Source: Chlorokybus atmophyticus
Taxonomy: Eukaryota; Plantae; Mesostigma and Chlorokybus algae
DNA: 64,000 bases
Assembly: GCA_009103225.1 (NCBI GenBank)
Contig: RHPI01001715.1
Coordinates: forward strand, 958,011-1,022,010
Reading direction: 5' to 3'
The number at the start of each line of letters is the position of its first letter. Position 1 is the stretch's first letter. Below are positions 1-34,263 of this stretch, piece after piece. Position numbers and translations under genes: made by a program. Below the pieces are notes generated by a model. The model was not told the DNA's origin, made no database searches, and worked only from the letters and a program-made list of their open reading frames with translations.

Positions 1-1585
1 AGCAACAGCCTGCCTACATGTTCAGAGTAAGTTGGTGGAATGGCATTCTTAACTTCCGATTCCGCATCCATCCACTCCACCTGCATGGCAGATTGCCACC
101 CTGCAATCGTGCCACGGCAGGATGCTTGGCCGTACACCGGGTCAATTTGCCTCTCCCCAGGTAGCAACTGCCGGCGCTGCTCCGGGTGGGTGGCCAGCTC
201 TCCAAGTGCACAACCAGTGTGGTTGCATTTCAGGTCTGAGTGCAGTGGAGGGTTTGTCTCGAAGATGCGATAACGATACACATCCAACTTGAACATGGTG
301 CCACACAGCTTCAGGTGAGTTGTCATGTGTCCTGTTGCGCCTGCGACATTCTCTATCACCTATGGCTTGCCGCTCAACTGCAACTTGGCTCTTACGGGGT
401 CAATCAGGTTGACGTGCTCCCATCGATTGCCGTACGCGGAGCGCTGTGTAGTGGGAATGACCCCACTTAGAGCTTGACATGGAGGACTTGCCCACACCGC
501 AGCGTATGCTGTCGGGTCAGCGTCCATTGCATCCATCTGGCAGAACTTGAATGGGTATGACGGCTGTGACTTGTTGTCGATGCCCTAAACATTAAACCCT
601 GCCCTGTACAGACCCATGGCTACACCACTAGCGCCGCAAAAGCAATCCAGTGCGCGCGGCCTGCAACGTCTTCCGTTTGATTCTATTAGTGTGCGTGTGA
701 TCAGAGGGGGTGGGGGCTTGGGCCATCGATCGAGCTCTCGACCAGGCAAGTCTTGCAGTTTCAGACAGCTTTGACCACCAACACGAACCATTACGTCGTA
801 ACCCTCACGCACAGCTGCCATGTTCCAGTTCTGTATCAAGATGTGGTGCAGCCGTGGGTCCTCAACGAAATCGTCGTACTTGATGGTATGTTTTCCTGAG
901 CCACATGTTTGCCTGAGCCGGTGCTTGCATGAGCGTGCGCATGTAAATACTCTGCAGTATACCTGTGTTGGCATCAGAAGTGATGATGTGGCCTGCATAC
1001 CAGGAGCTCATTCCTGGCCAGTACACCACAACGCGGCATGCTACCAAAGACTGCCCCTCATCAACAAGCTCCTTCCGCCAAGCAGCCAGTGTCGCGACAT
1101 CGTCGACAATCGCGTTCCCCTTTGGCATTCAAGAGTAAGTTGGTCATGCATGCAAGCGCTGTTTTGCTGTTTGCAAGGACAGTTCAACTCACCCTGTTGT
1201 TGACATCGTCTTCGATTACAGTGGACTTGCCGCGACCGTTGCGCACGAGCTGACGTCGAACCACATTGCACATCTGCCCATCGTGATATGCTCCAGGCCG
1301 TGCCCAAGGCAGGTGATTCATGGGCTCGCCGTCCCACTCAAACTTGGAAAGCGAGCACTATAGGCAAGTGCACTCCTCCCAAAAGAAATCGGGCCTCATG
1401 CATTGTGCCAGCAGTCTGCATTGCCTCACATTGTCCCCCCTTGCCTTGTGGTGCCAGCAGGCTTCAAAGAAGCCATACTGCTCACTATACAGCTTGCACT
1501 TCTCTTCATGCTGTTGCAGACATCTGTTGTTGCCATTCCTAACCAAGTATGCTTTGCAGAAGCTACACACTTTGACGCCGCGCAT
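1..1585 (-). pseudogene. Spliced gene: N-terminal Cys/His-rich domain + Tudor-like domain + compact bacterial/phage-type C5 DNA cytosine methyltransferase; 3 in-frame TAG stops; runs off the window start
   Basis: Manual minus-strand translation reading through the stops. Motif I: ALDCFCGASGVAMGLYRAGFNV*GIDNKSQPSYPFKFCQMDA. Motif IV: VWASPPCQALS. Motif VI: KP*VIENV. Motif VIII: LCGTMFKLDVYRYRIFETN. Motif IX/X-like: WQSAMQVEWMDAESEVKNAIPPTYSEHVGRLL. Upstream in the same spliced frame is Tudor-like RVVVYWPGMSSWYAGHIITSDANT|GKHTIKYDD. GT-AG introns at about 1120-1195 and 896-962 keep the frame. Confidence 0.88.
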
Positions 1586-1874
1586 GCTGGCGCCACGCTA
1601 CCTGGCTCACAAACCCTAGAAGCTAATGCACTTGACGGAAGAAAAAAAGGAGCACGTACGCAAATTGTGGAGCATATCCGGATTGACTTTCCGGCGTGTT
1701 TTGAATCGGGATTGGATGTGTCCTAAACCCTAATTTACGGTAGGCAGTCATGACGGCGGCGACGGCGGCGGTGTCAGCGGCGGCAGCGTGCCTGCAGGTC
1801 TTTGCTTTGGCTGTATGGAAGTTGATTGGAAGTTGCTTGCAGTATGTTGGCTAACTGCTTTTGATGTTTGTAGC
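1586..1874. promoter_or_regulatory. Probable bidirectional promoter/5' UTR region with telo-box motifs
   Basis: Lies between two divergent start codons (1585 minus, 1875 plus). AAACCCTA motifs at about 1612 and 1726; the same motif occurs near other 5' ends in the window (about 40639, 55910). Confidence 0.5.
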
Positions 1875-4800
1875 ATGAGCTACTTTCGCAGGTGTTTTTG
1901 CCGCGACCGCAAAGGGAGCAAAGTGTTCATATACAACCACATTAGAAGGGCTGAATATCATGAAAAATCTGGCAAAAACATGTGGTGTGGCACTCCAGAA
2001 GCTGTTGCTCCTGAATATCGTGATCGACTACAACCCCATGAACTTGAAGAAGCTGATGCTGCTGTTGCTGCTGCATCCTTACACATGTCGTCAGGTACAA
2101 GAGCAACTTCTCTACAGCTGTGAATCTATACAACAGGCTATCTAATCATTGATCTGGCTTGCCCCAGGTGAAGCTCTCCATGACACCGAACAATTGCTAG
2201 TTGGGAACGACGCTACTGAACATGTTGACACAGGCACGCCGTTGCAATAGAGTGTTAAATCTCCTTTCAATGTTGCAGCCAACTTGCAACCAGCAGTACG
2301 ACCTGACTTGCGTGGCATGTTGACATTGCTGATGCTGTGCCTCTCATTGTTCATGTGCCACTAGACTCATTGCAGCTGGCAGGTTGTAATCCGTGTGCTC
2401 ATGAAGGACAATGTGCTTATGGAGAACAACGCGGATCTTACCCAGCATTTTGTGGAATTGAAAATGCTACATTGCAAGAGCATCAAGGTGCCGGAACCAA
2501 ATCCACAAATGGACAAGTAGAGCCTGAGACGCCAGTGCAGTGCACCTCCACTGCTGAGCAAGTCGATGCGGAGCAAGGTGATGCGGAGCAAGGTGATGTT
2601 GCCGGCGAAGACCAAGACTATGAAACCGATGTGGAATCGCAGCCGGACGAGGCTAAATGCGTTGATGATGCCATGCTACTGGACAACGTGAATGCTGCGT
2701 TGCTGGATAATGCAAGCAACCCTGTTGTTTTCGGCTCTCGTACAACCCCTCCAAGCATTTCCAAGCTGCTATTGGTTCCGGCGCAGCTACATCGAATACC
2801 CTTCAATTTCATGAATAAGCTGCTCAGGTTGGTGGGCAAGTTACACTGCTGACTGTTGAAACATCACCCTGTTCAGAACTGATGTGTTTCTGTGTGCCAG
2901 GTTGTTGCGTGGCATTTTCTTGCCTAAGGAGAATAAGATGCCAGGCAGCATGCACGAGCTATTGAAATGCCTTGAAGGCCTCAACATGGGCTTCCACACA
3001 TATGATGCCTGTCGCTGTGATCACATGTTGTATTGTGGCCGACATGCCAACAGGATACTTTGCAAAGGTGAGCAATTGTTGCAAATGTTCACTACAATGG
3101 GATTTGATTAGCATGTCCCATCAGCATACGACTTGCTTATGCAGTCTGCAAGGCCCCTCGCTACCGCAACATAGGAGGTAGACAAGTTGCATGGAAGATT
3201 GGGCGTTACTTTGACGTGCCTGCTGCGCTGAGGGCTCTGTACCTAAAACCTAGTGTTGCTGCGGAGATGATGGCGCACACAAATCGAAGTCAGGATGGGA
3301 TTATGCGATCTGTACACGGTAACATTGCCAAGTTCAGTGGTAAATGAGGCACGACTATGTGCATGATTGTGTTGGTGAGCGGCTGGGGCAGTCCAATGTA
3401 AGCCCTCGGTGTCCGTGCCTTGTGCTTTTGTGTGCGTGGCGCTGAGGCGGCATGTAAGACCTCGGTGTCCTTGCCTGTGTTTGTTTGTGTGTCGGCGTGG
3501 CGCTGAGGCGGCATGTAAGACCTCAGTGTCCTTGCCTGTGTTCGTTTGTGTGTCGGCGAGGTGCTGGGGCGGTATGTAAGACCTCAGTATCCAGCCTTGC
3601 GATTGTATGCATGTTTGAATGTGTTGTGGGGCTGGGGCAGTTGGTCGTAAGCCCTTGGTGTACTTGCTGCTGTTAGACTCGCCAATGTTCAAGGACACTG
3701 AACAACGCTACAGCCGGTTTGCCAAAGAACCACGCAATGTGCGCCTAGCGATGTTCATCGACGGGATGAGCCCGTTCAAAGATCCGCACAAAGGTATAAA
3801 AGAGCATTTTTTTTCCTGTATGCTCGTTGCAGTGTAACTGTACGAATGGCAGCAAAGGGTTTGTTGAGTTGCAGGGAATTATGAGTTTTGGGTTGTCACA
3901 ATCTCAGTGTTGAACCTGCCCATTGCCAAGATGCACAAGACAGACACTACACTTCTAACTGCTGTAATCCCTGGACCCAAACAGCCAGAGAAACTACAGG
4001 CTTATCTCAAGCCAATTATTGACCAGTTGGGAGATCTCTGGGAAGGTATGATTTCAACGCAGCTAGGATAAGCAGCTTCCATAACTGCAGTCATGCTTGA
4101 CAAATGCGCATGACTGAGGCATGTAATCTGCTGGCATTTGTTGTAGGTATAGACATATATGACAGCCACCGCGACGCAATTTTTCGTTGCAGATCTATTT
4201 TGGAGATTGTAATCCATGATTACCCAGGTACGCAAGCAGCAGCAGTGTTTGCACTTACTGTTATCAGTGTCTGACTGTATCTGTATATCGGACTGTCCTT
4301 GCAACCATGGTTGTGGCTACTGAAGTACATCATGTTGGTTGCGCAGCTCTGGCAAAAGCTGCCTTGCAGATGGCGCATGGAGCCATTTTTGGCTGTTCAA
4401 AGTGCGAGTGCAGTGGAGAACATGTGGAACTTCTCAAAAAGGTGATCTATCAAGGCCACCGCCGGTACCTACCGGATGACCATCCTTACAGAGTTGATGA
4501 GCGTTGGCCGCAACCAGAACACAGACCTCCACCACCCATGCGGACTGCAGAGAGCGTGTACAGGTGAGCAATCTCAGTTGATTGCGCATTCGGTTGCAGA
4601 ACATAGGTATGTCAGCAATGGATGCCATGTGATCAGGTATGCTATGACATCTCGCAACAGCAAGCGTCCACTGCACTCCAAGAGACATCCTTCAAAGACC
4701 TCCGGCATCCTTGGACTGAGCTGTTTTCACGACCTTCCATATTGGCTACCGTTACAAAAATCTGTCAAAGGTCATGTGGTTGGCCCTATGCACATTTTTG

Positions 4801-7800
4801 CCAACCTGGCAACCAACTTTGCAAATCCCTAGCTGGCTTGCGCGACAGCATCGAATCGCGAGAAGATCTGCAGCAGCAAGGCCGCATGCCTGAACTCTGG
4901 CTAGAGTTACGTATGTAGTCGGCCTCGTTGACATGTGCCATAGTTGGATTTAACTAAGGACTTGAACCTATGTGCTGCAGACAGAGATGAAGATGAAGGA
5001 TGGAAAGGAAGTCGCAGTCAAGGTAAAACCCCAGGCTCCATGGACAATCACAGATGTAGGACTGGTTGAGCAATTGCTTTCCGGCGTGAGGGTTTCAAGC
5101 ACTTTCGACTCGAAACTGCAGTCTTTCACAAAGCATTTAGGTGAGATAGCCGTTATATGTTTTGTGTTTACGCTAAAGCAATGATTCTCCATGCATGGAA
5201 CTTTTGACATGGAGCATGCAGGCTCGATGAAATTGCACGACAAGCACAACTTATAATCGGTCGTTTTTAGTACGTGCTGCGCTCGGCACACGACATTGGA
5301 GAAGATCAGAAGAGAACCATCTTCAAACTATGCGACATCTATCAACGGCTGACTGCATCGGAAGTAAAGCAGTCACACCTCAAAGAATTGAAGGTTGGCT
5401 TCAATAACACTTTACTCTGCATGCCCAGCTCCTATGGCATGCATAGCTTATTACTTAGTGCAGGTGCTGGTGCATGAGGCACAGTCTGAAGTGGAGCTGT
5501 TCTTCCCGCGAACTTCTCTCACAATGATGCTGCACCTCCTTGGCTATTTACCAGAGCAGTGCATGTGGCTTGGTCCGATGCGTGACCACTGGGAGTGGGC
5601 ACATGAACGCTTTATGCTGTGGGTGAAGCGCATGATATTTGCAAGGCAGCATGTGGAAGCAAGCATCTGCAAAAGGCAAGTTTTGTGTGAGCCCACTGAG
5701 AGTTACGTGCAAACTTTCCACATTGTTGGCCTTGTTCAAGTGCCAGTTGCATCTGCAGATACTCTATCCAGCTCATGCTGAGCACTTGCATGGACACCTT
5801 GAAGCGACTTTTCTCCGACATCCGTTTGCGATCGGGCAAGCAACGAGATGATGACGACTATGTGCTCTGCGGACGGAGACACCATATTAAGGTTGGGGAT
5901 AAAGATAGTAAGACAAGGCAGGAGCTCGAGTGGTGGTTGGCTGAGAATGACGATGAATACAGGCTGTTAAAAGAGTAAGTTGCTTTGCGAGTTGCTGTTT
6001 TGTACGTGATGTCCAACGCGCAGACACTATGATTTAATTATGGGTTGCTGCTACACAGAGAGTTCAGTCGGGAGGTGAACAAACGCAGGATGGCAAGGGA
6101 AAGGGCTCAAAAACAAGGACATGTCGTGGCAAAGGACATGGAGCATATGACTGAGCTGCATCACTGGCGTGGACCTGCTAGGGAGCTTACAAAGCACGAG
6201 ATGGAGCTGTTGAGCGGTCCAATCTTTCCAAAGTACATCAAGCGATACTTCAGAGCACGCTACAAGGACATCGGTCAGTTTAGAGCAGAGGAAATGGAGA
6301 AGAAACTCCGCACCATGGACTGTGGCGTGTTTACCGTTGGGCGCGACTCAGATGACCCAACCAAGAAGATCCATTGGTATGGCAGGGTGCAATCTTTTGA
6401 TGTTGTGGTGATAGCTGGTCGGGAGCACCAGCTGCTCAGAGCTAGGTGGTACATGAGCAACCAAGTCCAGCACAGTGGAGGATTTGCAATCCCAAGAAAA
6501 GACAAGCCCCGCTTTGCAAAATAAACCTACTTTGATTGCAACCTGGTAAGTGGCTGTGTTGCAATCGTTTTGGCGTGTGCTTGGTGTGATGATAGTAAAT
6601 TGAAATAGTAATATGAAAATGGCTGATGAATATCCCTTCTTGCTGGCAGGTCAAGGGCCAGTGGTTTGAGGGAATTGATCCCCATGACAACAAAGTAACA
6701 GTAGCGCTTGTTACAGATAGGCGCAGTCTCATGCGTCGAGGCATGCACCGGGACACTCCGGTTAGAGGAGAGTTAACAACGTTGTCCATTCGAATCTGGA
6801 TGTCCTCATATATCCTGGGTTTTGGCATCACATACAACCATCTTGTGTACTTGGTGCAGGGTGCCAAAAGCGAAACCAATAGCGCCTCGAGCGAGGTGTC
6901 ATGAACCACACACCGCGACTGGCATTTTGAGTACAAGAGGTACTGTTTGCGATTGTGATGCCTCATATCCCTACTGTGAGACTGCAGTAGACAGCTGTAG
7001 ACCTGGCCACTGAACCTTTGTTCACAGGATGAGACCGAGACTGGAGCTGGATGTGTTAGAACATCGGGAACATGAAGACTACTGCTTTGTCTGCAAGGAT
7101 GGGGGCACCATATCTGGCTGCGATGTTGAAAGTTGCTGGAAAAGCTACCACGCGCACTGTGTCTCTATGCCACTTGTGGAGGATGAATATTGGGAGTGCC
7201 CAAGGCATGAGTAAGTGGACTTCATTGCAGCAAATGCTTGGCATCTTGTTGTGAGGAACTTCACTCCTAGAACCATCATCACTTGTACTGAACCAAAACA
7301 CAGGTGCCATGTGAAGAACTGCAACGAAGCAGCTTTTCAAGTCAGCGCAACGTGTCCAAACAGCCTCTGTCGACGGCACGCTGTGGGTAGCATGGTCGAG
7401 GTTACGTGCTCGCGATGCGCTGCGTACGAAAAAGGTGGTGCTCCAGCGCAGCTCCCAAGGGAGAGCCTTGCTCGTCGTTCTCTGCCGGGCGGTTGCGGTA
7501 GGGTTTCACAACCTGTGCAGAGTGGGGTTCAACACGTTGAAGACAGTGGGGATGAGGCTAACAATGGTAAGCTGCTGTGTGCTTGAGCTTGTTGATTTGC
7601 GTTGTGGTTCTTGCCCAATTGAACCATTTATAGCTGCAGAGGCAGTCACGATGGAAGTTAGCGATGAAGACGAAGAGGGTTGTAACCAGCAACCCACGAC
7701 GGCTGCGGCAGTTGTGGACCTCGTGGGCAGCGATGATGATATCATGCTGCTGGACGATCCAGTCAGCAACCCGCAGCCGTCAACACCGCAGCCACTGTTC

Positions 7801-8922
7801 ATTTACCCTAGTGCAAGTGCACGTGATGCGGTGCCAGTGCTTGAAACGGACAGGAGATTGCTGAATGGTAGACAAGAGCTCAATGACACCATCCTCCACT
7901 TCTTTTGCAGGTATGTGATTTGTTGCGTCTGTGTTATTCGTGTATCTCATATGTACGTGGGATGCACATGCAGATACAAGGAAGAGGAAATCTTAGGTAG
8001 AGCAGATGGCATTCAGGTGAAGCTGTTTCACCCGCATTTCACATTTCACACCCGCATTTCGACACCAAAATCGTGCGCTGCCATAGACAAAATGACTGGC
8101 ACACGAGCAATCACAGAATAGACAGGTGGGAGAGTGATCCGTTTGCCAAGGACTTGCTGGGAGTGATTGTCAACCCAGACACGCGGTGAGAATAAGCGCC
8201 AAGAATATCTTGCTGAATTGCTGCTGTTTTTGCAAACTTGAATTATTTTCATTGTTCACAGGACTCACTGGAGTCTGCTGCTTGTGTGCAAGCCTGGAGG
8301 CCAACTTGGAAGTGACACGCCGCCTTTACTCGTCCATCTCGACTCCCTTGGCCTGCATCGCAACGTTGATGGACCTATGCGCGCTTACCTTGACTACATG
8401 TGGGGCAAAAAGCATGCAAGTGACTCACAACGACGCTTCTCTCCCGAAAACGTACAGCTTCTTGTACCACAGGTAGCACACGTTGCATTGCACTAGTGAT
8501 GAGTTTGCATGCATTCTGTCACAAGCACTGATCGGATGCATGCACATGCATTTGGTTTGCAAGCATTGACACATGTTTGTGCAGGTCCCACAGCAGAAGG
8601 ATGGAGTTGCGTGCGGTTGTTTGTCATGCTTTATCTTGACAAGTTTATAGATGGGGTACAAGCTGGTCCAATTGACCAAAATGCACGGATATTTCAACAG
8701 GTACAGTTCATGCATGTGCACTGCAATGTTTACAAGTGGAAGGTGCTTTAATGGCACTGTCGTGTAGGCCAACACGTGCATAGTAACCACATGTTATTGC
8801 TGTGTGGTTGTGTGCAGATGCAAAGGAGTTGGTTTCATCCTCAAGTGGCAGACAGGTTGAGAAGACGATTGCGAACACTCATGGACAGTATGTTAGCACA
8901 GCAAAGACATGAGTTGAGCTAG
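1875..8922 (+). pseudogene. Multi-exon CACTA transposase (Transposase_21, DUF4218, DUF4216-like) fused to PHD-C5HCH and a Ulp1/SENP (peptidase C48) domain; degenerate
   Basis: Transposase motifs: YDACRCDHMLY..CK|VCKAPRY, RFAKEPRNVRLAMFIDGMSPF, VIPGPKQPEKLQAYLKPIIDQLGDLWEG, YQGHRRYLPDDHPYR, FHDLPYW..GPMHIFAN, FFPRTSLTMMLHLL..LGPMRDHWEWAHERFM, HWYGRVQSF..LLRARWY. Then EDYCFVCKDGG..CWKSYHAHC..WECPRH|ECHVKNC..TCPNSLCRRH. Then LNDTILHFF, HWSLLVC..HLDSLG, PQQKDGVACGLFVMLYLDKF. Premature stops at 6522 (TAA) and 6902 (TGA); frameshift near 4830. Confidence 0.88.
3396..3590. repeat. Intronic tandem repeat, about 3.3 copies of a ~60-bp unit
   Basis: Unit ATGTAAGACCTC(G/A)GTGTCCTTGCCTGTG..GTGTGTCGGCGTGGCGCTGAGGCGGC repeated inside a transposase intron. 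Confidence 0.85.
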
Positions 8923-10479
8923 TAGTAGCAGGTGGTGTGTAGCATAGCAATGCTGTAGTCCATGTCAGAGCTGTCCCCCACCATCAACTCAAACCAGCTG
9001 TGTGGAATTGCTGAGCAACTCTGGCTTTGACATATATTAGACTGTATATTAAAATTAGCAGTGCAATCTACTTGGTTTTCAATCACATTCAGGACTTGGC
9101 CAAAATGAGAGTATATGTTTCTTCGTGTGGGGTTGAATATTCACTCACAGTCAGGAGTTAGTGCAAAACGTATTGCTTGGTTTTGGAATGGTGTTGAAAA
9201 TTCACTCAAAGCTAGGACTTACTGTGCATCGTATTGCGTAGTTTCAGATTGGTGTTGAATGTTCACTCACATCTGTGGCATGAAACTGGTGAAGGTTATG
9301 AATATACATGTGTGACAAGCTGATCAATTGATTATTCACGGGCAGTTGGGACTTGGTGAGTTTAAGCTGTCTGGTTTTAGCCACAAGCTTATGCCCCTTC
9401 ATGAATGTTCAGGCAATGTATAGCTGAATATTTAGCAGAGCACATGCTGTGTCCATTCACAATTGCATGCCCTTGAACATTTAATCGACTTTAACCGAAT
9501 ATACGAGGTATACGGGTTTTGAAAGGTGGCATTAATTTATCGCGTGGATATTCACGCGATTTATAGGTAAATGTCGCGATTTCGTTTTGGCAGAGATTGC
9601 ACAGAATGTACGAAAACACTTGAATATTCACTCGATACAAAGCTGAAACGGTAAATCAAACGAATATTCAGTGCGTTTGCCATGAATTTTCATAAATTCG
9701 GGGGTCTTATAATTACCGGTGGGGTATAACCATATATCTATTTTTATTTTCTTTCCGCGGCCGGTATTGGCACAACTCAATTGTGCTAGCACTGGCTGCA
9801 CATTCTGCGTGCCAGTTCTGGCACAACAAAGTTGTGCCAATGACCGGTACTGGCACAAGCCGTTTTATGCTAGTTCTAAGGACTTTTGGGTCTAGACCCG
9901 CTGTGGTGCTTGTTAATAACTGAGTATGCTAAGAGAGCATAATCAGCCGTTTATAAGCATTACACAGCCTCTCATGGTAGCGATTTTGCTACTGTGGCTT
10001 AGTCGGTTAAAGTCAGGTTCCACACCCGCAAGGCAGTGCCAGTGCTGGCACAAACGGTTTGTGCCAGTCTTGTACGGCCTGCAGACGCCACGTGTTCGTG
10101 ACAACTGCGCATGCTGGCTAAGGCGATAGATATTGCAGCGTAGGGTTGGGACGGCGGGTGAAGTGGTGCACATTGTGCTTACTGAGCATAAACCTCTAGG
10201 TATGCACGATGTACATAATGCGTATCGCTGATGTAAAGCAATATCACGTTTAAAAATGCGATATTACTTTGAATATATCACATATATCATATACATAAAT
10301 ATACATTATCTGTTCCCCCCTTCTCCCTCTTGTACGCACAAATGGGTACATAAAGCTGTGCTGAGATGGAGTATGCAATTGCTTATAGAAGGTGAAGTTT
10401 GGCTAATGGGAGATGTGTTCCCGTGCATATTTTGCATAGTTAGAGTGTGCATGCAGAGCGGTTAATCTGTAGACAGCAC

Positions 10480-11810
10480 AGTGAGAAGTGTGCAGCTTTC
10501 TGACGTGCAGGCTTACGTTTTGAGAGAGCTAGGTGACCCGCTGCCTATGTTTTTGTATGCGCTCGTTCATACTCGTGTCATGGCGGCCACCTTGCCTGCA
10601 CATGCGGAGGCGCGGGGAGTCGCCTATAGCGTAGCTACGCTAACGACACTTTTTGGATGGGACCGCTAGCCCAAGTGGAGGCAGCAGCCCAGGCCTTGGT
10701 GACGGCAATGACGGCTGTGGGACTACGCGTGGCACTGCACAAGTCAGCGGCATACAGCTTGGACGAGGCGGTGACGAGAGTGCTGACTTTGTTGGACCAG
10801 GTCCGACGCACCAATGGTGGCATTGTTGTACTGGGTGTGCCACTTGGCACGCCGGCTTTTATGGCCGCACACTGCGAGAAGATTGTGTCAGAGACGCGGC
10901 CGCTGTGCTGCCCGCCCTGCAATCAGTACTGGATGCACAGGTGGCCGTTCTGCTACTGACCAAGTGTTTGATGGCGCCCGTCGTATTTGGCGTGCATAGC
11001 GCGCCCAACACCACTCCGTCAAAGCTCGCCAAGGCGCGCCGTAAATCTGGCGATGGCGCACAAATGCGGCTGACCGGGTGGCTCGGACTGGAGGAGCGTC
11101 AGAGGCGCACAACGGCACAGGCGGGTCTGCCGGTTGCGTTGGCGTTGTCGCCATGCGCAGCATAGCACTACATGCGCCGGCGGCTTTTTTTGGAGGGTGG
11201 GAGTCGGTGGCGGCGCCCCTAAGTTCACATTTTGTCTCGCCACTGGACATAGAGTTCTCGACGGAGGTCGACAATGTGGAGACCGGTGCCTGTCTGTTCC
11301 AGCAGGAGTTGCGAGCAGTTTGTGATTTGTTGCCGCGGAAGGCGCGCCCCCTTATCCCGCCGTTCACGGCCATGGCGCGCACGGTGACTTATATGCTGCA
11401 AAAATCCCTCAGCTCGAAGGTGGACGATGCAGTCGTTATGGCATATGAACATGGGGCGACTCTTGACGACAAGGCCCGTCGGATGTCGGCGTCCGGGGTC
11501 GATGCAGGCGCGTGGCTGTCGGCGCTTCCCTTTCTTTCGGCGCTCCGCATCTCCGCCGATCTTTTTTGAACGGCCCTCCGCACCCGCCTGGGGTTGCCGC
11601 ATCCCATGCTAGCGGGCGTCACGCGTTGCACCTGTGGTGTCGTGCTAATGGCGGACGGTGCACACTTGCTGCGCTGCTCGATGGGGAGAGGGCGCACTGC
11701 GACGCATGACGCCTTGCGTGATGAGACGTTTGTAATACTACGCGAGGCGGGCTGTATGGTTAGTAGGGACTCCCTAACTAACTCTGCTCGGAGCAGACGG
11801 GCTTTAGGCA
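10480..11810 (+). mobile_element. Degenerate, 5'-truncated non-LTR retrotransposon of the CRE/R2-like (RLE) group: RT domains 4-7 plus C-terminal zinc knuckle
   Basis: ELGDPLPMFLYALVH (QGDPL motif), SYANDTFWMGP (YADD changed to YAND), GLRVALHKSAAY..GIVVLGVPLGTPAF, AGAWLSALP, CTCGVVLMADGAHLLRCSMGRGRTATHDALRD. Several frameshifts. Confidence 0.75.
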
Positions 11811-12082
11811 TGTCGCACAATCCGGGGGGACACTTTTGGTGCAACGTTAATGGGAGTTTTTTCAATTTTTATCGCATTTCATGATTTCGTTCAACATTTG
11901 AAGTCATCCCACAGCTGTTTATTTACTAGACCTCCACTAACCCGCGTCTGCGGCATAGCAACAAAGTACGCGACTTTTAGGAAGATAATACATAATAGCA
12001 CGCGTACAGCAAGCAGTTGTTGGTTATACGTTGAAAGTACGCAAAATCGTATGGTATTCAGCTAAAATGGGTCATTTTTTGT

Positions 12083-12868
12083 AAACTAGCGGTGCGGCTA
12101 ATTGGGCGGGATTGGGCCTACCGGCCTGCCGAAAGGCCGACATTAAGGCACAAAGACACATCACGCGCACTGAGGGCCATCAGATACGGCACCCGAGACG
12201 ACTTGCCGGCGTACGGAGCAGCCCGCCTACCTCTCATTGGCGATGCGACGTTTATCAGCAATTGGCCATTCGATTTATGTTACACAGATCTCAACCTTTC
12301 AAAGCACATCCCCATATCTTGCAATTGCACAAAGTATATGCGAATGAATCGAAGAATCCATTCTTTATGAGCACAACATGCACGGTGCACATATGCGTTG
12401 TACAGTACAGTCCACCCCTGTTAAAAGACTTCGGTTAAAGAGTATAACCCCGCTTGTAGCATACGATTTGAGATCACCAACGATTCTACAGGCAAATGTT
12501 AGTGCTTCAGAGAATATGAACAACCGCGAAGAGCATACAAATTCTTATGACATTTTTGCAAGTTTAAGTGTGCATATTCTTAACATCGAGGGAGTAGCGC
12601 GTGACGGGTTTGTCATAATGCGTAATGAGTGTGATGGACAAGGCGTGATGGGTACAGTGCAACGCGTAATTAGCGTAATGAGCGTGACGGCATAATAGAC
12701 GTGACGTAATGCGCGTGATGGGCGTGATGGGCGTATTAAACTGTTTTATAGCATACAGATGCTCTTAATGTATAAGAGCATATTATACTCTTTATTGCCA
12801 AGAGCATAACCCCGCCAGGAGCAAACCATCTTGAAGACAAATAGTATGCTCTTAAGGGGGGTAGACTG
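12083..12868. mobile_element. MITE copy 1 (right part only), TIR ending GGGGTAGACTG|TA
   Basis: Near-identical to 13429-14222. Confidence 0.75.
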
Positions 12869-12918
12869 TACAATAAATGTTTCAATGTTATTAGGTACAA
12901 CTATGTATCTTAATTATA

Positions 12919-14222
12919 CAGTCTACCCTTTTGTAAGAGCATACTGTTATCCTTAGAAATCGTATGCTCTTGGCAGGGTTATGCTCTTGGCGACTAAGAG
13001 CATAATATGCTCTTGAACGTTAAGAGCATATATATGCTATAAGCGCAGATTCATTCCGCCCATCACGCCTATTGGTCGGGCCGGCCTGTCGGCATTCAAC
13101 CTACATCACACATCCCGCGAGGGCCATCACACGGCACCAGCGATTGCCGGGCTGCGCGGCAGTATGTGCGGCCCGCTTGCTTCTCATTGGCTAGGCGGCG
13201 AGAACAAGCGTTACACCGTTAGATCTGCAAAACGATTTTGGCCGTCCAAAGCACATCCAATCATTTTAACGCATGCCAATAAATGTAGAATCAAGGACGG
13301 TTCTGCATACGTGGCCGCTTATGGCTGCATGTTGATCATTTTGATGTGTTACAGTAATAATATGCTGCAATATACTGCTTATATGGTGCAACATGGCTAG
13401 CAACCTGCAGTTAAGTGTTACAAAACTTAAACTAGCGGTGCGGCTGATTGGGCGGGATTGGGCCGGCCGGCCAGCCGGGAGGCCGGCATTAGGGCACAAA
13501 GACACATCACGCGCACTGAGGGCCATCACACACGGCACCCGAGACTACATGCCTGCCGCGCATACCGAGCAGCCTGCCTGCCTCTCATTGGCTATGCGAC
13601 GTTTATCAGCTATCAGCCATTCGATTTGTGTTGAACAAATCTCAACCTTCCAAAGCACATCCCCATACTATGCAATTGCACAAAGTATATGCGAGTGAAT
13701 AAAAGAATCCATTCATTTTAAGCACAACATGCACGGTGCACATATGCATCATGCGTGCGTTGTACAGTTCACCCCCGCTAAAAGACTTTGCTCCAAGAGA
13801 ATAACCCCACTTGCAGCATACGTTCTGGGATCACCAACGATTCTACAGGGTAATGTTAGTGCTTAAGAGAATATGACTAACCGCGAAGAGCATGTTATTT
13901 TTCATGACATTTTTGCAAATGTCAGTGTGCGTATTCTTAACACTGAGGGAGTAGCGCGTGACGAGTGTGTCATCAGGCGTAATTAGTGTGATAGACAAGG
14001 CGTGATGGGTACAGTGTCATGCGTAATTAGCGTCATGAGCGTGATGGCATAATACGTGACATAATGCGGGTGATGTAATGGGCGTGATGGGCTGCTTTAT
14101 AGCATACAAATGCTCTTAATGTTTAAGAGCATATTATGCTCTTTTTAACGCCAAGAGCATAACCCCGCCAGGAGCAAACTATCTTTGAAAACGAACAGCA
14201 TGTTCTTGAAAGGGGTAGACTG
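12919..14222. mobile_element. ~1.3-kb non-autonomous Tc1/mariner-pogo-type MITE (copy 2, complete)
   Basis: TA|CAGTCTACCC ... GGGGTAGACTG|TA; long imperfect inverted ends rich in AGAGCATA/TATGCTCT; no coding capacity seen. Confidence 0.8.
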
Positions 14223-14268
14223 TACAATAAATGTAATTAAGTACGTACCACTTTGTACCTTAATTGTA

Positions 14269-14721
14269 CAGTCTACCTCGCTATAAAAATCACGTGTATC
14301 TTTCATTTTATCAACGGGGAAATTCTCTTGGCATTTACAATAATATATACTGTTTTATTTATTACATAATATATAATTTACTGACAGGGGTATTGCAAAA
14401 TAACCGTAAGCCACGTCATTATGTTTTAACGTGGCATAAATTAAGTTAATAGTAGTCAATATTAAATCAATTATGTAACTATATATGAGTCTTGTAATAT
14501 GTGTATGCTTATAAATTTTAAAATAAACATGCCGTTAACGAGGTATTCCCTCGTAATAAGACTGAGCTCACACAGAATACTAACCCTTCGTTGTAGTCTT
14601 ATAGCGCACAAACTACTCCCCTATCGATGATATTGGCCTGTACAAGCATTGGATTTTTGCAAATCTATGATCTCAACGGGTTTATTTTCATAAACCGAAG
14701 TCTTTTAACGGGGGTAGACTA
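14269..14721. mobile_element. ~450-bp AT-rich MITE with the same TIR family
   Basis: TA|CAGTCTACC ... GGGGTAGACTA|TA. Confidence 0.7.
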
Positions 14722-14723
14722 TA

Positions 14724-15231
14724 TAGTTTACCTTTTTGTAAGAGCATACTGTTATCCTCAAAAATCGTATGCTCTTGGCGACTAAGAGCATAATATGCTC
14801 TTGAACGTTAAGAGCATATATATGCTATAAGCGCAGATTCATTACGCCCATCACGCCTATTGGTCGGGCCGGGCTGTCGGCATTCAATTTACATACATCC
14901 CGCGCTATGGCCATCACACGGCACCCGCGACTGCCGGGCTGCGCGGCAGTATGTGCGGCCCGCCTGCTTCTCATTGGCTAGGCGGCGAGAACAAGCGTTA
15001 CACCGTTCGATCTACCTAAACACGATCATGGCCGTCCAAAGCACATCCAATCATTTAAGCGCATGCCAATAAGTGTAACAATAAGCACAATTCTGCATAC
15101 GTGGCCGCTTATGGCTGCATGTTGATAATTTTAATGTGTTACATTAATGATATTGATAAACATGCTGCAATATGGTGCAATATGGTGCCATATGATTAGC
15201 AAATGCTGTTAATTGTTTTAAAACTTAATAA
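14724..15231. mobile_element. MITE copy 4 (left part only)
   Basis: Starts TAGTTTACC (mutated CAGTCTACC); near-identical to 12919-13430. Confidence 0.72.
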
Positions 15232-16185
15232 TCAACGTAACGTTCACGCCACGGTACGTGCTGCGATATACAGTATATAATGCCGAGGTTATGACCGTCA
15301 AAATAATGCTAACCTGAATTACCTTAACGTTAAGATTCAACTAAACGAAAAATTGCATCGTTAGGCCACCATTTGGTCACGCATGACATTGATCAAATGG
15401 GATCGCAACGGTGACAACAGCCAGTTGCTCAAAAAGGCAGCGAAATAGCCAATCATTGCCAAGATGCTTAAAAGATGCTGAAGAATATCTCAGCGGCAAC
15501 CGCTTACCAACGGCGACCCAAAATTGCTAGGGATTTGGTGCAATTGCGGCACAACTAGTGGTTAAAACGGCCGCGTTTTTGGCGGTACGAGGTCGGGGCA
15601 GGCCCCATACCCCAAACACATGCCGCCACTACTCACCCTCGTTCTAACTGATCCACTCTACCCTTAACGCTAATTGATTACACGCTATAGTTACTGCGTC
15701 ATCAAACATGGTCAACGGCCGAACCAACGTAACATTCACGCCACGGTACGTGCTAACATATATAGGAAGTAATGCCAAGGTTACCACCATCAAATAATGC
15801 TAACCTGGATTACTTTAACGTTAAGATTCAATTAAACAAAAAATCCGATCGTTAGGCCACCATTTGGTCACGCATGAATTTGATTAAATGGGATCGCAAC
15901 GGTGACGACAGCCGTTGCTGAAAACTATCTCAGCGGCGACTGCTTGCCAACAACGGCGACCCAAAATTGCTTGGGATTCGGTGCAATTGCAGCACAGTTA
16001 GTGGTGACAACGGCCGCCGTTTTGGCGGTACGAGGTCGGGGCAGGCCCCATACTCTAAAGACATGCCGCCACTACTCACCCTCGTTCTAACTGATCCACT
16101 CAACCATTTCACGCTAATTGATTACAAACTATAGTTACGTAACTAGTATACTGCGTCATCAAACATGATCAATAGCCAAATGACC
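15232..16185. repeat. Two tandem copies of a ~460-490-bp unit
   Basis: CAACGTAAC(G/A)TTCACGCCACGGTACGTGCT... starts at about 15232 and about 15725, with colinear similarity along the whole unit. Confidence 0.85.
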
Positions 16186-16599: not shown

Positions 16600-19500
16600 C
16601 ACGTAGGGTAAAGTGCCCTAATTTCGGGCAGTGACCTTATTTCGGTCACGCCTGTTTTTTGGCTGCTGTAAGCGCTGTGGGCCGTCGATCGCGGTGAGGG
16701 TTTAGGAGCTGTTAGATGTGGCTAACGCGCGTCTACTGGTTCAAACCCCATCCCGTTTGACCAAGTAGAGCGGCAGATTTGAATTTTTGAAAATAATTAG
16801 TTTAGGTAAATGCTGAGTCATCGTCCTTAACTGTTATAACTTTTGGCTGTGAACAAGTTTTGAAGTGCGGTTTGTTGCTGTGTGTTAGTTTAGTAATGAT
16901 GAAGCAACTTCTTTCAAAGTTTTATGCTGATTGGATAAGAATTGAGAAACTTAATATGTCACCCCTCCAAGTGTCGCCGTAACATTTTTAAGAGTTGGTG
17001 AAGGCGATAACTATTGAGTGGCGCGGGCTTTTAAGTTGAGGTTTTTCGCATTGTTTTGGTTAGTACGTAAGGCTGCTTATCATAAAGTTTCAGCTTAGTT
17101 AGATGAGTAACAAAAAAATTAATGTGCCACCCCTACCGCAACAATCGTAAAGTGCAAGCTTGTGCAAGTTGTATGAGTTAGCATCTGGACGGTGGCTTGC
17201 TGTTGTGGTTGTGTTAGTGTTGCGAGGCAAGCATAGGAGCGGTGGGCTTGCAATGCACGCGTGCAAGTGAGGTGAGCAGGGTGGAGGGCACACGGGGGTA
17301 GTGAGAAACAAAGTTGCATTCAAGTTTACAAGCAAAGCGCCTATGCCAACTCAGGTACGTTGCACTATGCTATGCCTATGCTATGCTCTTTTACCGTTTG
17401 GCTGAGACCAAGGTGTTATCATTGCCAAGTTGTTGTTGCTGTTGCGGCATTTCATCGTGCCTTATACAGTCAGGCATTGTGCTGCTCATAGGTGAGGAAA
17501 CGGGTTACCAACAAGAGCGTGCAGCAGCGACTAAAAGAGCTGCAGAGCAAGCCCAAGAGGGGACCATACATGAACAGGAAGGCCCGGGAGCAGCTGCTGC
17601 CTCAAGTAGAAGCTGCCATCCAAGCTGTGCAGCAAGGGTGCATGAGCGCACGAGTTGCAGCCAGGGAGGTGGGGCTGCCAGAGTCCATCTTTCAGGACTA
17701 TGTGGAGGACCCTGCCCGTGCGCAACAATACAAGTAAGCTGCAGTGCAACACACTCACTACTATCCTGCAGGGGGGCAGGGAGACCTACCTTGCTACACG
17801 ATAATGAAGAGATGAAGCTGGTGGAGCTGCTGACTTTCAAAAACGGCATAGGTTGTGCCACGACAAAGTATGATATTCAACTTCACGATGCCAAGCAACT
17901 CTGCTACGACCCCAAAAAAGACCAGTTCAAGGATGGCATACCTGGCAAGAGATGGGTGAGGAGCTTTATGAAGAGGCATAAGTTAAGCAAGAGAAAAGCA
18001 GAGCCAATGGACGCCAGCAGGAGGACGTCCTTCAAGCGATGGATAGTGAAGGACTACTTCAAGCGTTTGAAGGAGGTGCTGGAGGTGATGAAGATTGGGC
18101 CTGACAGGATCATATCGTGTAACGAGATAGGAATTGAGCCTGATTTTACCTTGAAGAACACCTGGGTCATAGTGAAGAGGTGAGTGAGGTGTGTGAGATG
18201 CTGGTTGTGCAATGCATGCACAGTGCTGACTAACACCTACCTATGCAGCAACTCGAAGTTTGCTCAACAGGATGTAAGCGGGGCAAGACAGCATATTATG
18301 TTGATGGCGGCTGTGACAGCTGCAGGGTACGCTACTCCACATACAGCAATCCTGGCAGGCAAGCATTTGTATTCTGAACGGGGAGAAGCATTCAATCTGC
18401 CTGGTGCCAGCCTAGGTTGCCAGGAGAATGCATGGATGACCACGGAGCATTTCGCCATTTGGATCGACCACCTGCAAATTAACATGCCTGGGAGCATTAG
18501 TCCTTTTTACTCGGCTCTCCTGATCTGTGATGGCCACGTTAGCCGATAATGTGTTGACACAATAGACATGTGCAAAGAGATGGGGTTGGAGATCATTGTG
18601 CTGCCACCCCACACGACACACAGACTGCAGGTGCTGGACGTTGCATGCTTCAGCAGCTTCAAGTCCGTGTACAAAAAGGAGTATCAAGCCTGGCTCAAGA
18701 CACACAGCAAGGTTAGACGGCTGCCTAACGAGGACTTCTTGAGCATGCTTGTGCCATGCTTCGTGCAAGGGCTGAGCGCCCATAACATACTCAGCGGGTT
18801 TAACGCATGCGGTGAGCACCCTGCTGCAGTATACTTACACATGCATGTGCATGCTGGCATGCAGTGTGACTGATGCATGCTTGTGCGTGCAGGGATATCA
18901 ACATTGGACGACACTGCAGTGGACAAGTACTCACCCCCAGAGCCGTCTAAGGGGCTGCTTGACGTCCTGGAAGAAGCCATGGAAACCGACCAACCAGATG
19001 CAGAGCCAGAGGAGGAGGAGGCTTGTCTGGATCAGGGTGCTTCAGCTGCCAAATCCAGTGCTCCCCCACCTAAGAAAAAGAAAAAGACTGGTATTAGGCC
19101 ATGCACAGCAGAGTGGCTGACACACGAGGACATTCACGACAGGCAATACCAGATAGAAAAGGAGCGTAGGTTGGGAAAGGAAGCTATAAGAGAGAGGAAG
19201 GAAGGCCCCTCTAGCAGCATTGGAGCGCACTGCTGCAGCTGCCGAGAGGGCTGAGGCAGCTGCTGCTCGCAAGGAAGAGTTAGCTCGCACAACAGAAGCA
19301 GCAAAGGCAAAGAAGGAGGCTAGCAAGCAAGCAAAGGCAGCAGAAGCAGCAGCACGACAAGAGGCACAAGCACAAGCAGCTAGACAGGAGGCAGCAGCAG
19401 CAAGACAACAGCAACAAGCGCACCGCCCACTCACTGCAGGAGAGCAGCGAGCCAAGATAAAACAAGAGGCCATTGACATTCTCGGCAGATGGAATTGGGA

Positions 19501-20308
19501 TGCATGCTCATGGGACAGTGAACGTCATGAACCCTTTGTGGAGTGGGCGGAGTGGCAGCTGTACCGCCTGTACAATGGCTGGCCCAGTGCCGCAGGCAAG
19601 CAAGCTGGCGCCAGGTGGCGTGCATACCGTGAGACTCACCCTAGACCCCCTCTGCCCCCTAGTACAGAGGCATACGACTCAGACTAGACTAGCTTAGGCC
19701 TATGCTTGACGCAAACAGCTGTACACAAACCATGCTGATGCTTACAACACCCACACCCATGTGCTTACCATGCATGCCGCTGCTGTCGCCGCCCACCTCG
19801 CCTACTGGCATATGTGCCTGCATCCTGCCTCGTTTGCTGACAGCTTTCTCCCGCCACAAAAAGGCGGAAAAAGGTTGACAGCCGCCTCACTGTGGCGGGA
19901 GCAGGCAGCTGTCAGAGCCAGCAAGGCCATCACCCTACATCCGCCACACCACGGTGATGGCTGACGGCATTCTGCCTGCTACACAGGCAAATGGGTGACC
20001 GAAATAAGGTCACGGGTCAATTTGACCTGCTGGGGATTACACATGCCCACTTGGCGCGCCATACCTACTGCTATACTGGTCAGAATTTACGTAAAAAATA
20101 TATACGTGTAGCTAACTTGATAAGCTACACATCACTCACTAACATCACCGCCAAAAAACAAACAGCCTGCTAGCTATAATAGGTCAAACCTTATTTGCCC
20201 GAAATTAGGGCACTTTACCCTAACATCACCGCCAAAAAACAAACAGCCTACTAGCTATGATAGGTCAAACCTTATTTGCCCGAAATTAGGGCACTTTACC
20301 CTACTGCG
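16600..20308 (+). mobile_element. pogo/Fot1-like DDE transposon with TA target-site duplication
   Basis: TIR GTAGGGTAAAGTGCCCTAATTTCGGGCA at 16603 and its reverse complement ending at 20304; TA flanks at 16598-99 and 20309-10; the terminal ~80 bp are duplicated at the right end. Confidence 0.88.
17343..19687 (+). pseudogene. pogo-family transposase (HTH_psq, CENP-B HTH, DDE_1), degenerate
   Basis: EAAIQAVQQGCMSARVAAREVGLP, GRPTLL..EE, PGKRWVRSFMKRH, IISCNEIG (D to N), ALLICDGHVSR* (in-frame TAA), LPPHTTHRLQVLDVACFSSFK. Confidence 0.85.
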
Positions 20309-25571: not shown

Positions 25572-26317
25572 CAGGGTACCGAGCGGAACACACGGCGCTA
25601 TCCCTACCGTATTTACCCTAACACAGTCCCCCCCTTTTTATACAGTCCCCCCCTCGATTTTGCTGAGGGGGACTGTGTACGGGGGGGGACTGTGTTACAG
25701 TAGGGGGGACTGTGTTGTGTAGCTGGGCGCAGCACAGTCCCCGCCCATGATACGTCATCCAACCTTCAAGTTACGCCCATGGTCGTAATTGGGATTTTCT
25801 GGCGCCGAAACAGCGGCGTTAGGGTTGTTGAGCTGGTTGGCGAGGTTGTTGAGGTGGGGCGGCGGTGAACATGGTGGGGGCGAGAGCTGCAAGGCATGCA
25901 GCGCGCAACCGCCTGGAAAGAGAAGCTGCTGCTGCCAAGGAGGCTGCCAAGATAGTTGCTGAGGCGGCAGCCAAGGCACGTGAGGCGGCCGCCAGGCTTG
26001 CGACAGAGGCGGCAGCAGAGCAGCTGGACGCCGGTGGTGAGCGGCCCACCGGCGTCCAGAAGCGCGTCAATGCTGCCCGCACCAACAACGGGCGCAATAG
26101 GAGGTACAAGCGGCGAGCATTCACATGCCACCAAAAGGTATGTTTATGCAATGTGCTTTGTGTATTGGTAATAATGCATGCTGTTACTGCTCAGCACAAT
26201 CAGCGTGTGCATATGCAAGTTTGCTTAGCAGTGTTGTGTGCTGTGTGTACTTGTGACAATGCATGCTATCACTGCTCAGCACAATAAGGGTGTGCATTTG
26301 CACGTGTACTTAGCTGT

Positions 26318-27068
26318 GCTGCGTGCTGTGACAATGCATGCACGCTCACACACTTGCATGCACGTGACGCATGTGTATGCGTGCATGCACTGTTGCTGCG
26401 TGCTATGTGTCTGGCTGGCGTGACCAACAAAGTGTTACATGGCAGCGCAAGTTCATTGACATTGCCAAGCATCTTGGCATTAAAAGAACCGAGCGCACGG
26501 CATCCACGCCAAGAGCTTGCGGAACTGGCTTAAGCTTAAGAGCTAGAGATCAAGTCTGCATGTGCAAGTGATTGTAGGCTAAAGGGTGGCGGGAGGACAC
26601 TCTCAATTCCAGAGCTTGACACTCTTGTGTACAACTACATTGTTGATAAGAGGTCGCGTGGGTTGGGAGTGACACAAGGCATGATCATGATGCTGTGCTG
26701 CGTGCTGTGACAATGCATGCACGCTCACACACTTGCATGCACGTGACGCATGTGTATGCGTGCATGCACTGTTGCTGCGTGCTATGTGTCTGGCTGGCGT
26801 GACCAACAAAGTGTTACATGGCAGCGCAAGTTCATTGACATTGCCAAGCATCTTGGCATTAAAAGAACCGAGCGCGAGCACGGCATCCACGCCAAGAGCT
26901 TGCGGAACTGGCTTAAGCAAGAGCTAGAGATCAAGTCTGCATGTGCAAGTGATTGTAGGCTAAAGGGTGGCGGGAGGACACTCTCAATTCCAGAGCTTGA
27001 CACTCTTGTGTACAACTACATTGTTGATAAGAGGTCGCGTGGGTTGGGAGTGACACAAGGCATGATCA
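26318..27068. repeat. Tandem duplication (~375 bp x2) of an intron/exon segment of the pogo transposase
   Basis: About 26318-26690 and about 26693-27068 are near-identical; the first copy has small indels that shift the frame. Confidence 0.88.
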
Positions 27069-27109
27069 GGGTATGTTTATGCATGTGGTACACTTGTGTT
27101 TGCATCAAG

Positions 27110-27780
27110 GGCTGCACGCACTTGCACGCACACACGCACGCGCACAGCTGCACCACTCTAGCATGCACACGCACACGGAGCTGAACCATGCACGCACGCA
27201 CACGCACACGCACTCCCGCACGCACACGCACGCGCACACGCACACACATGCACGCAGCTGCACACACACTCACGTACATGGCTGCACCACTCACGCACGC
27301 ATACACACACGCACGCAGCTGCACACACACACTCACGTACATGGCTGCACAACTCACGCACGCATACACACACGCACGCAGCTGCACACACACACACTCA
27401 CGCACGCAGCTGCGCCAGCTGCACACCCACGCACCACTCGCACACGCACACGCAGACGCACGCAGCTGCACACACACACGCACTCACACGCACGCAGCTG
27501 CACCACTCGTGCCCGCACTCATGCACCCACACGCACACGCACATGCACACGCAGACGCACGCAGCTGCACACACACGCATTCACACGCACGCATCTGCAC
27601 CACTCGCGCCCGCACTCATGCACGCACACGCACACGCACGCACGCAGCTGCACACACATGCACACACATGCAACAATGCACTGCACACGCACGCGCACAC
27701 GCACACGTATCTCAAGGGCACAACCACACACACGCACGCTGGTACACTCAGCAAACGCACACACCAGCACTTCAATAGCT
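27110..27780. repeat. Intronic CA/CACG-rich compound microsatellite
   Basis: CACACG/CACGCA low-complexity tract between a GT donor (~27071) and an AG acceptor (~27802). Confidence 0.9.
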
Positions 27781-29325: not shown

Positions 29326-29358
<33 letters not shown>

Positions 29359-34260: not shown

Positions 34261-34263
34261 GGG

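Follow-up and report, generated by a model that had tools for sequence, protein, structure and literature searches.

C5 cytosine methyltransferases encoded by transposons have been described in retroelements. They are reported from retrotransposons of Symbiodinium and charophytes (PMC5890265), as the preliminary description of the present locus had stated for eukaryotic retrotransposons in general, and from EpiLTRs, which combine a C5 methyltransferase with a chromodomain reader (bioRxiv 10.64898/2026.05.21.726589). DNA transposons with related cargo are also in print. A red-algal Plavaka element (EnSpm/CACTA superfamily) has an N6-adenine methylase-SET gene, PAG2 (bioRxiv 10.1101/2025.02.11.637652), and Sola1-1_Ec32 of Ectocarpus carries a ParB-N4C/N6A methylase on the strand opposite its transposase (PMC12477816). 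Mariner-1_OLpv of a giant virus is described with a C5 cytosine methylase and a restriction endonuclease (PMC3627910), and TET/JBP genes are reported from fungal EnSpm, ESTA, and Plavaka elements (PMC12730594).

We analyzed a stretch of 64,000 nucleotides from Chlorokybus atmophyticus (the window), which has a decayed CACTA/EnSpm element near its left end. A spliced gene for a predicted Tudor-fused C5 methyltransferase lies head-to-head with the transposase gene. In encoding a C5 cytosine methyltransferase, this element would resemble the retroelements named above. As far as these are described, however, they mostly bear DNMT3-like or DNMT4-sister enzymes, whereas here a cut-and-paste element is accompanied by a separate spliced gene for a compact enzyme of a phage/giant-virus family joined to a Tudor domain. 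The Plavaka and Sola elements, too, are DNA transposons of algae whose accessory gene encodes a prokaryote-type DNA methyltransferase, but their enzymes are N6-adenine or N4-cytosine methylases fused to SET or ParB, in contrast to a C5-cytosine, Tudor-fused enzyme beside a Tnp_21/DUF4218 transposase. Mariner-1_OLpv is likewise a DNA transposon encoding a C5 methylase; it is viral, belongs to the Mariner type, and is partnered by the restriction endonuclease, and its description reports neither Tudor nor introns. The TET/JBP-bearing EnSpm elements share CAC..GTG ends and a cytosine-modifying cargo, but the fungal cargo oxidises 5mC (an eraser), whereas that of the window is a predicted writer. 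The combination was not known from CACTA elements to the preliminary description. A CACTA element with a Tudor-fused C5 enzyme was not found in the literature searched; DNA transposons carrying a methyltransferase have been published, among them the EnSpm-related Plavaka. The scope of this search was main texts only, outside which lie Repbase, the Bostrychia preprint's table of curated elements, and a 2011 chapter on green-algal elements cited by the Ectocarpus paper, all of which may affect how new the combination is. Nothing of relevance was found in PMC9940879.

Coordinates of the methyltransferase gene and of the CACTA element in the window
Feature	Position	Strand	Remarks
Exon 1	1193..1585	-	ATG 1585; Cys/His-rich N-terminus; TAG 1360-1358 (CAG elsewhere)
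Intron 1	1120..1192	-	73 nt, GT-AG; diverged variant unalignable over 1105-1175, both flanks align
Exon 2	963..1119	-	first half of the Tudor, from about 1053
Intron 2	896..962	-	67 nt, GT-AG; within the Tudor; only intron yielding the RDM15 cage spacing
Tudor, predicted PDS5/RDM15-type	825..1053	-	spans intron 2
Exon 3	1..895	-	end of the Tudor, linker, C5 methyltransferase domain (from about 660, extending past base 1)
Stops in exon 3	587-585, 362-360	-	TAG; GAG and TGG in other copies
Divergent intergenic region	1586..1874	.	289 bp; likely shared promoter; AAACCCTA at 1611 and 1725
CACTA/EnSpm transposase gene	1875..6800	+	Transposase_21 (Tnp_21), DUF4218; intron-rich; 3' end approximate
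Second accessory gene or fused 3' part	7029..8922	+	NSD-like PHD finger, C5HCH, Ulp1 (Peptidase_C48) protease
Subterminal repeats	9128..9671	.	61-bp tandem unit and GAATATTCAC motif
Right terminus	9706..9721	-	CACCGG... inward; ends GTG at 9721, CAC..GTG type

The methyltransferase gene (1585→<1, minus strand) comprises three exons and two GT-AG introns, as obtained by splice-site enumeration on the window sequence, and its last codons lie to the left of base 1, beyond the window edge. Three splice models were open, among which we chose the one with introns at 1192-1120 and 962-896. The preliminary description had read through three TAG codons to obtain a single spliced Tudor-methyltransferase protein. 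This reading is upheld by an ORF of 481 codons in the window copy, which contains the three TAG codons and no frameshift and has all of the methyltransferase motifs in exon 3. The predicted protein consists, from the N- to the C-terminus, of a Cys/His-rich region, a PDS5/RDM15-like Tudor, and the compact C5 methyltransferase. For the Cys/His-rich region of exon 1, the Pfam and PHROG scans gave no family within the thresholds applied. The methyltransferase ATG (1585) and the transposase ATG (1875) face away from each other across 289 bp, close to the approximately 290 bp given previously. In a diverged variant, the sequence just upstream of the methyltransferase ATG (100 bases, 1586-1686) can still be aligned. 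Other copies have TGT in place of the in-frame TGA found at 1609-1607. The true start, or a 5' exon, may be located further upstream. The divergent region holds two copies of AAACCCTA (1611-1618 and 1725-1732), which we take to be a telo-box-like motif.

Contigs representing other copies of the element came from public runs X1 and X2; about half of the sampled words of 1-9800 are present in either run. The two runs probably represent one genotype because they have contig sizes and differences in common. Every contig aligned to 1-1745 differs from the window at positions 361, 587, and 1360, where it reads TGG, GAG, and CAG in place of TAG. The three TAG codons are therefore decay of the window copy. 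A recoding of TAG is ruled out by the three different sense codons read at these sites, and is also countered by a host ABC1 exon of 329 codons that is open in the standard code. The contigs differ further at motif I (L for C and G for S), RHR, and YPVYG, in each case towards the family consensus. Among the 59 full-share differences listed across the element, the window copy shows C:G>T:A in 32 and the reverse in 8, with no context bias. The 24 changed codons of the methyltransferase comprise 6 silent, 15 missense, and 3 nonsense changes. Because the transposase of the window also carries frameshifts and a TAA codon in addition to these methyltransferase stops, the element copy in the window is dead. 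Other copies are open at the three stop positions, a statement that concerns those codons only; over the methyltransferase, 40 of 205 variant differences are listed, and the contigs are short.

Both genes occur in X1 and X2 as two tiers of variants, one about 97.5% and the other about 87% identical to the window. The methyltransferase tiers have 13 and 65 other letters over 387-898, the transposase tiers differ by about 2% and 12-21%, and a third methyltransferase piece is 83% alike. The ratio of the tier depths is similar in the two runs (21.3:10.3 and 33.1:14.8), where contig depth is not equivalent to copy number. Each run contains at least two diverged variants, and one alternative right flank occurs, in X2. 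The 87% variant has 18 extra bases, a multiple of three, in the linker between the Tudor and the methyltransferase, and its intron 1 is unalignable between alignable exons. Between variants differing by 13-17%, exons and frame are preserved, in contrast to intron 1 and part of the linker. By eye, loose contig ends show one variant in which an AG of its own is followed by the same Gly-Asn at the start of exon 2, another in which the second half of the Tudor continues in frame before diverging, and another with RPRALDL leading into motif I.

The Tudor domain was compared with that of RDM15, a PDS5-type Tudor of known structure (PDB 7DE9) that binds H3K4me1 via W616, Y623, Y641, D643, and D645 (PMC8184781). 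Exon 2 alone gave a weak match to this structure (E 0.059, on half of the domain), which was the only match at E<=10; Pfam Tudor matched neither half when the halves were scanned separately. In the spliced protein, a Trp is followed by Tyr, Tyr, and Asp at +7, +25, and +27, so that the aromatic cage and the first Asp have the same spacing as W616, Y623, Y641, and D643. This spacing is present in one of the three open splice models and occurs nowhere in the 127,996 residues of the six-frame translation of the unspliced window. In contrast, the equivalent of D645 (+29 from the Trp), which is described as part of the monomethyl-specific readout of RDM15 (PMC8184781), is Val in the window protein. 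The Atlas neighbours of the domain halves all fall under 0.9, and most of the named ones are of Tudor type. The identity as a Tudor domain is likely, and binding to histones is predicted from the cage residues.

The methyltransferase motifs FCGASG, PPCQ, ENV, YRYRIFETN, and AIPP are all within exon 3, and we take them to be motifs I (FxGxG), IV (PC), VI (ENV), VIII (RxR), and the C-terminal motif, respectively. S-P-P-C and E-N are invariant or nearly so across 119 aligned relatives. Exon 3 matches the PHROG_363 DNA methyltransferase family with an E-value of 8.9e-22, whereas Pfam DNA_methylase scores E 0.027, below the cut-off. A search with exon 3 against 1.84 billion representatives yielded 3586 relatives at E<=0.001. 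Of 50,697 phage records, 324 match it, and each of the 15 listed bears a DNA methyltransferase annotation. A structure model built from the 119-row alignment has a mean pLDDT of 82.5. Its best PDB match is M.HaeIII (E 1.2e-07), with TM-scores of 0.30-0.49 across the listed matches; all of these are C5 methyltransferases or annotated DNA methyltransferases, DNMT structures included, at 10-16% identity. No DNMT appeared among the three PDB matches at E<=1 in the sequence search of solved structures, and the Pfam scan found none of the companion domains BAH, RFD, PWWP, and ADD. As judged from the PHROG_363 and phage matches, the fold shared with M.HaeIII and DNMTs at 10-16% identity, and the lack of a DNMT match by sequence, the predicted enzyme is probably a compact prokaryote/virus-type C5 methyltransferase rather than a DNMT1, CMT, or DRM.

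The earlier label of a phage-type enzyme distinct from DNMT1, CMT, and DRM is supported at the level of the family, but the nearest relatives, instead of being ordinary phage proteins, form an insert-bearing clade. When 99 rows drawn from about 440 were placed in a quick tree (the 19 closest relatives, 35 other database proteins, 35 IMG/VR proteins, and 10 metagenome loci, with no reference eukaryotic DNMTs), the window enzyme falls in a clade of 18 (SH-aLRT 99) together with 17 insert-bearing or truncated enzymes and no IMG/VR rows. The relatives in this clade have an insert in the variable region, where Pfam detects MBD in four of the seven scanned and DUF7028 in one. The variable region of the window enzyme has no insert and measures 53 residues, compared with 95-166 in the relatives. 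P0004, P0005, P0124, P0135, P0144, P0146, and P0166 are phage-type C5 methyltransferases whose variable region contains an MBD-like insert; in another group (P0013, P0031, P0136, P0161, and others), the insert is longer. The database proteins P0133, P0134, P0139, and P0176 have the compact methyltransferase domain twice, in tandem or permuted. P0166 is a gene of Chromochloris zofingiensis that is 45% identical to the window enzyme over 196 columns; in the quick tree, it lies outside the clade of the window enzyme on a long branch. The PHROG_363 enzymes of mycobacteriophages and of Gordonia phage BrutonGaster have the same motifs (35-39% identity to annotated phage enzymes), as does the best viral fold match, the C5 methylase of Pithovirus LCPAC201 (34%, E 2.6e-17). 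The window enzyme differs from these in its introns, its N-terminal Tudor, and its placement in a separate clade lacking IMG/VR rows. Because the nearest relatives are insert-bearing, and one relative is a Chromochloris gene, an origin by way of giant viruses or other algal DNA is possible, and a route from phages through giant viruses or algal DNA is plausible. At least 160 viral or metagenome loci encode generic relatives, and none of the 45 placed in the tree falls within the clade of the window enzyme. A DNA pattern specific to this clade matched 3 viral and 10 prokaryote loci, none of which (0 of 13) encodes the enzyme. No transposase-like sequence was present near any of 173 loci examined, a weak search for longer fused relatives returned none among 1684 candidates, and the window contains no second copy.

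On the other side of the divergent region, PF02992 was detected on four exon ORFs of the transposase gene (best E 2e-10) and PF13960 with E 2.4e-08. The window copy is broken by frameshifts near 4827 and 5263, both one-base differences, and by TAA at 6522-6524. Reading by eye, we found CSKC, and HLLGY at the presumed H(3)H position of this decayed copy. A search for relatives of one transposase exon gave 0 of 1 candidate. The gene has two likely GC-AG introns (2233-2381 and 5676-5758), the first of which would excise an in-frame TAG at 2247, and a 61-bp tandem repeat of 3.3 copies (3396-3592) lies in one of its introns and is absent from the diverged variant. In the downstream PHD-C5HCH-Ulp1 gene, the window copy differs from others by a 20-base duplication near 8029 and by one base near 8614. 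Subterminal repeats are a feature of CACTA/EnSpm elements. The 10-mer GAATATTCAC, chosen by eye from the right subterminal region, has 10 of its 13 window matches in 9133-9671, less than 600 bases from the right end, and none below 9133; none of 100 shuffles reached 13 matches. One contig of X2 departs from the window sequence at 9721 into a different flank (one contig, one run). EnSpm termini are described as 5'-CAC..GTG-3' (PMC12730594), the type found at this end.

The window is about 50% GC and intron-rich, and Pfam identifies plastid-type host genes (ABC1 kinase and CAAD); its left half consists mostly of transposons (pogo-like and Gypsy). To the right of the CACTA end, a small element with GGCACAA inverted repeats (9760-10070) occurs in X1 and X2 with a different middle. 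At 10600-11900, there is a GC-rich decayed frame that is not CpG-depleted and has no Pfam support; it contains a GAWL.A.P-like motif of the kind that non-LTR retroelements typically have. At 12080-16110, a cluster of direct repeats interleaved with inverted ones, with the motif AAGAGCATA, probably consists of non-autonomous DNA elements. Two pogo/Tc5-type DDE transposons (16603-20304 and 25605-29515) have inverted ends of 28-29 bp each. A Gypsy-type LTR retrotransposon (33400-36950, with TGA at 35449) is strongly depleted in CAG/CTG (0.42), unlike the remaining window, a possible sign of CHG methylation.

Whether the methyltransferase gene belongs to the element depends on the left end. The preliminary description had proposed that a CACTA family acquired an intron-bearing Tudor-methyltransferase, a proposal to be abandoned if the left TIR lay between the two genes. 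We looked for it and found no copy of the right terminus and no terminus-like start in 1-1900, and the interval 1586-1874 has neither a terminus copy nor a subterminal motif; no left terminus lies between the genes. The introns, the fusion, and the divergent transposase also agree with the proposal, whereas the cargo status itself is something we infer, because the left TIR and the target-site duplication lie outside the window. An X1 contig spanning 1490-3463 joins methyltransferase exon 1 to the transposase, with 40 other letters in 1969 (98%). The contig of the diverged variant (1490-1686 aligned) extends beyond the start of the methyltransferase into intergenic sequence, and its next 30 loose letters have, by eye, 15 in-register matches to the window. 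Contig cover is continuous over 1-9800 and then 0-3.9, and one X2 contig extends 175 bases past base 1. As to whether intact copies exist and adjoin the transposase, a question raised previously, there are variants open at the three stops and one contig joins both genes, but the whole element is not covered by any one contig, and in the diverged tier there is no piece among those listed that joins the two genes. Because both genes have paired variants, a contig bridges them, the right end is at 9721, and no left end intervenes, the methyltransferase is very likely cargo of the CACTA element, with the left end outside the window. This position of the left end, the annotation of a relative as a Chromochloris zofingiensis gene, and the pithovirus enzyme as the best viral fold match would also suit a host or endogenous-virus gene beside the element, or one joined to a left-truncated element, in which case their linkage would be confined to this locus and its duplicates. 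Orphan DNMTs derived from viruses are reported as widespread in eukaryotic genomes (PMC12344493). Such an arrangement appears quite improbable in view of the 289 bp between the starts, which hold no terminus or subterminal motif, the parallel diverged variants of both genes, and the diverged contig that continues past the methyltransferase start into the intergenic region.

What the enzyme might do for the element was considered in the light of CpG content. The observed/expected CpG ratio is 0.62-0.68 in the element, 0.62 in the host ABC1 gene, 0.42-0.63 in other transposons, and 1.07 in one LINE-like piece. Because the CpG depletion of the element equals that of the host gene and its decay shows no context bias, there is no footprint of self-methylation in the window copy. 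These two observations would fit an enzyme that is cargo but a mere passenger, captured once from viral or algal DNA and intronised, with no role in transposition or self-marking. The neutral appearance of the codon changes given above points the same way, and so does the report that Symbiodinium retrotransposons without a DNMT expand as well as those bearing one (PMC5890265). We nevertheless regard this as unlikely, since the exons and the frame, unlike intron 1 and part of the linker, are kept at 13-17% divergence, the catalytic motifs of other copies are nearer to the family consensus, and similar reader-plus-writer cargo is described in other transposons. It is also conceivable that the element retains an active enzyme whose targets are host chromatin or other DNA, such as gene bodies, rival elements, or an invading virus, and not the element itself. 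RDM15-type Tudors read H3K4me1 (PMC8184781), H3K4me1 is described as a gene-body mark in plants (bioRxiv 10.1101/2022.05.28.493846), and the CpG depletion of the element is shared by the host gene in the window. However, such depletion can stem from host DNMTs, and no sequence-specific benefit to the element is evident; we consider this reading very improbable.

We favor, as fairly probable, the reading that the window holds a decayed algal CACTA/EnSpm copy whose likely cargo, a Tudor-fused C5 methyltransferase of a phage/giant-virus family, is predicted to give intact copies a cytosine-methylating activity of their own. In the mechanism that we envisage, the left end of the element would lie beyond the methyltransferase, and both genes would use the 289-bp region as a promoter and be expressed together. 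A shared promoter is suggested because the sequence between the divergent ATGs is not CpG-depleted (0.98, compared with 0.62-0.68 for the element). Intact copies would make the writer alongside the transposase, and the Tudor is predicted to tether the enzyme to nucleosomes bearing methylated H3; the mark read by the closest solved relative is K4me1. Cytosine methylation may then be laid on the element or on its new insertion site, where it might tune the activity of the element or mimic methylated host gene bodies. The PHD-C5HCH-Ulp1 gene could provide the element with a second chromatin-facing tool. A further prediction, which we advance only tentatively, is that a CACTA family of the nuclear genome has a 5mC writer guided by histone marks, derived from phages or giant viruses, co-expressed with the transposase, and backed by a PHD-Ulp1 protein, and that it would set the DNA methylation of its copies or landing sites without depending on host DNMTs.

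Cytosine methylation is normally a weapon of the host against transposons. If the favored reading is true, the capture of methyltransferases extends from retroelements to CACTA elements, and the question of why transposons keep methylation enzymes becomes testable. Because the enzyme is small and copies open at the three stops exist, its specificity and targeting could be assayed directly. The enzyme family scores below threshold in Pfam screens for DNMTs. The finding would also mark a route by which a clade of phage-type methyltransferases gained eukaryotic readers, as MBD-like inserts in the relatives and as a Tudor domain in the window enzyme.
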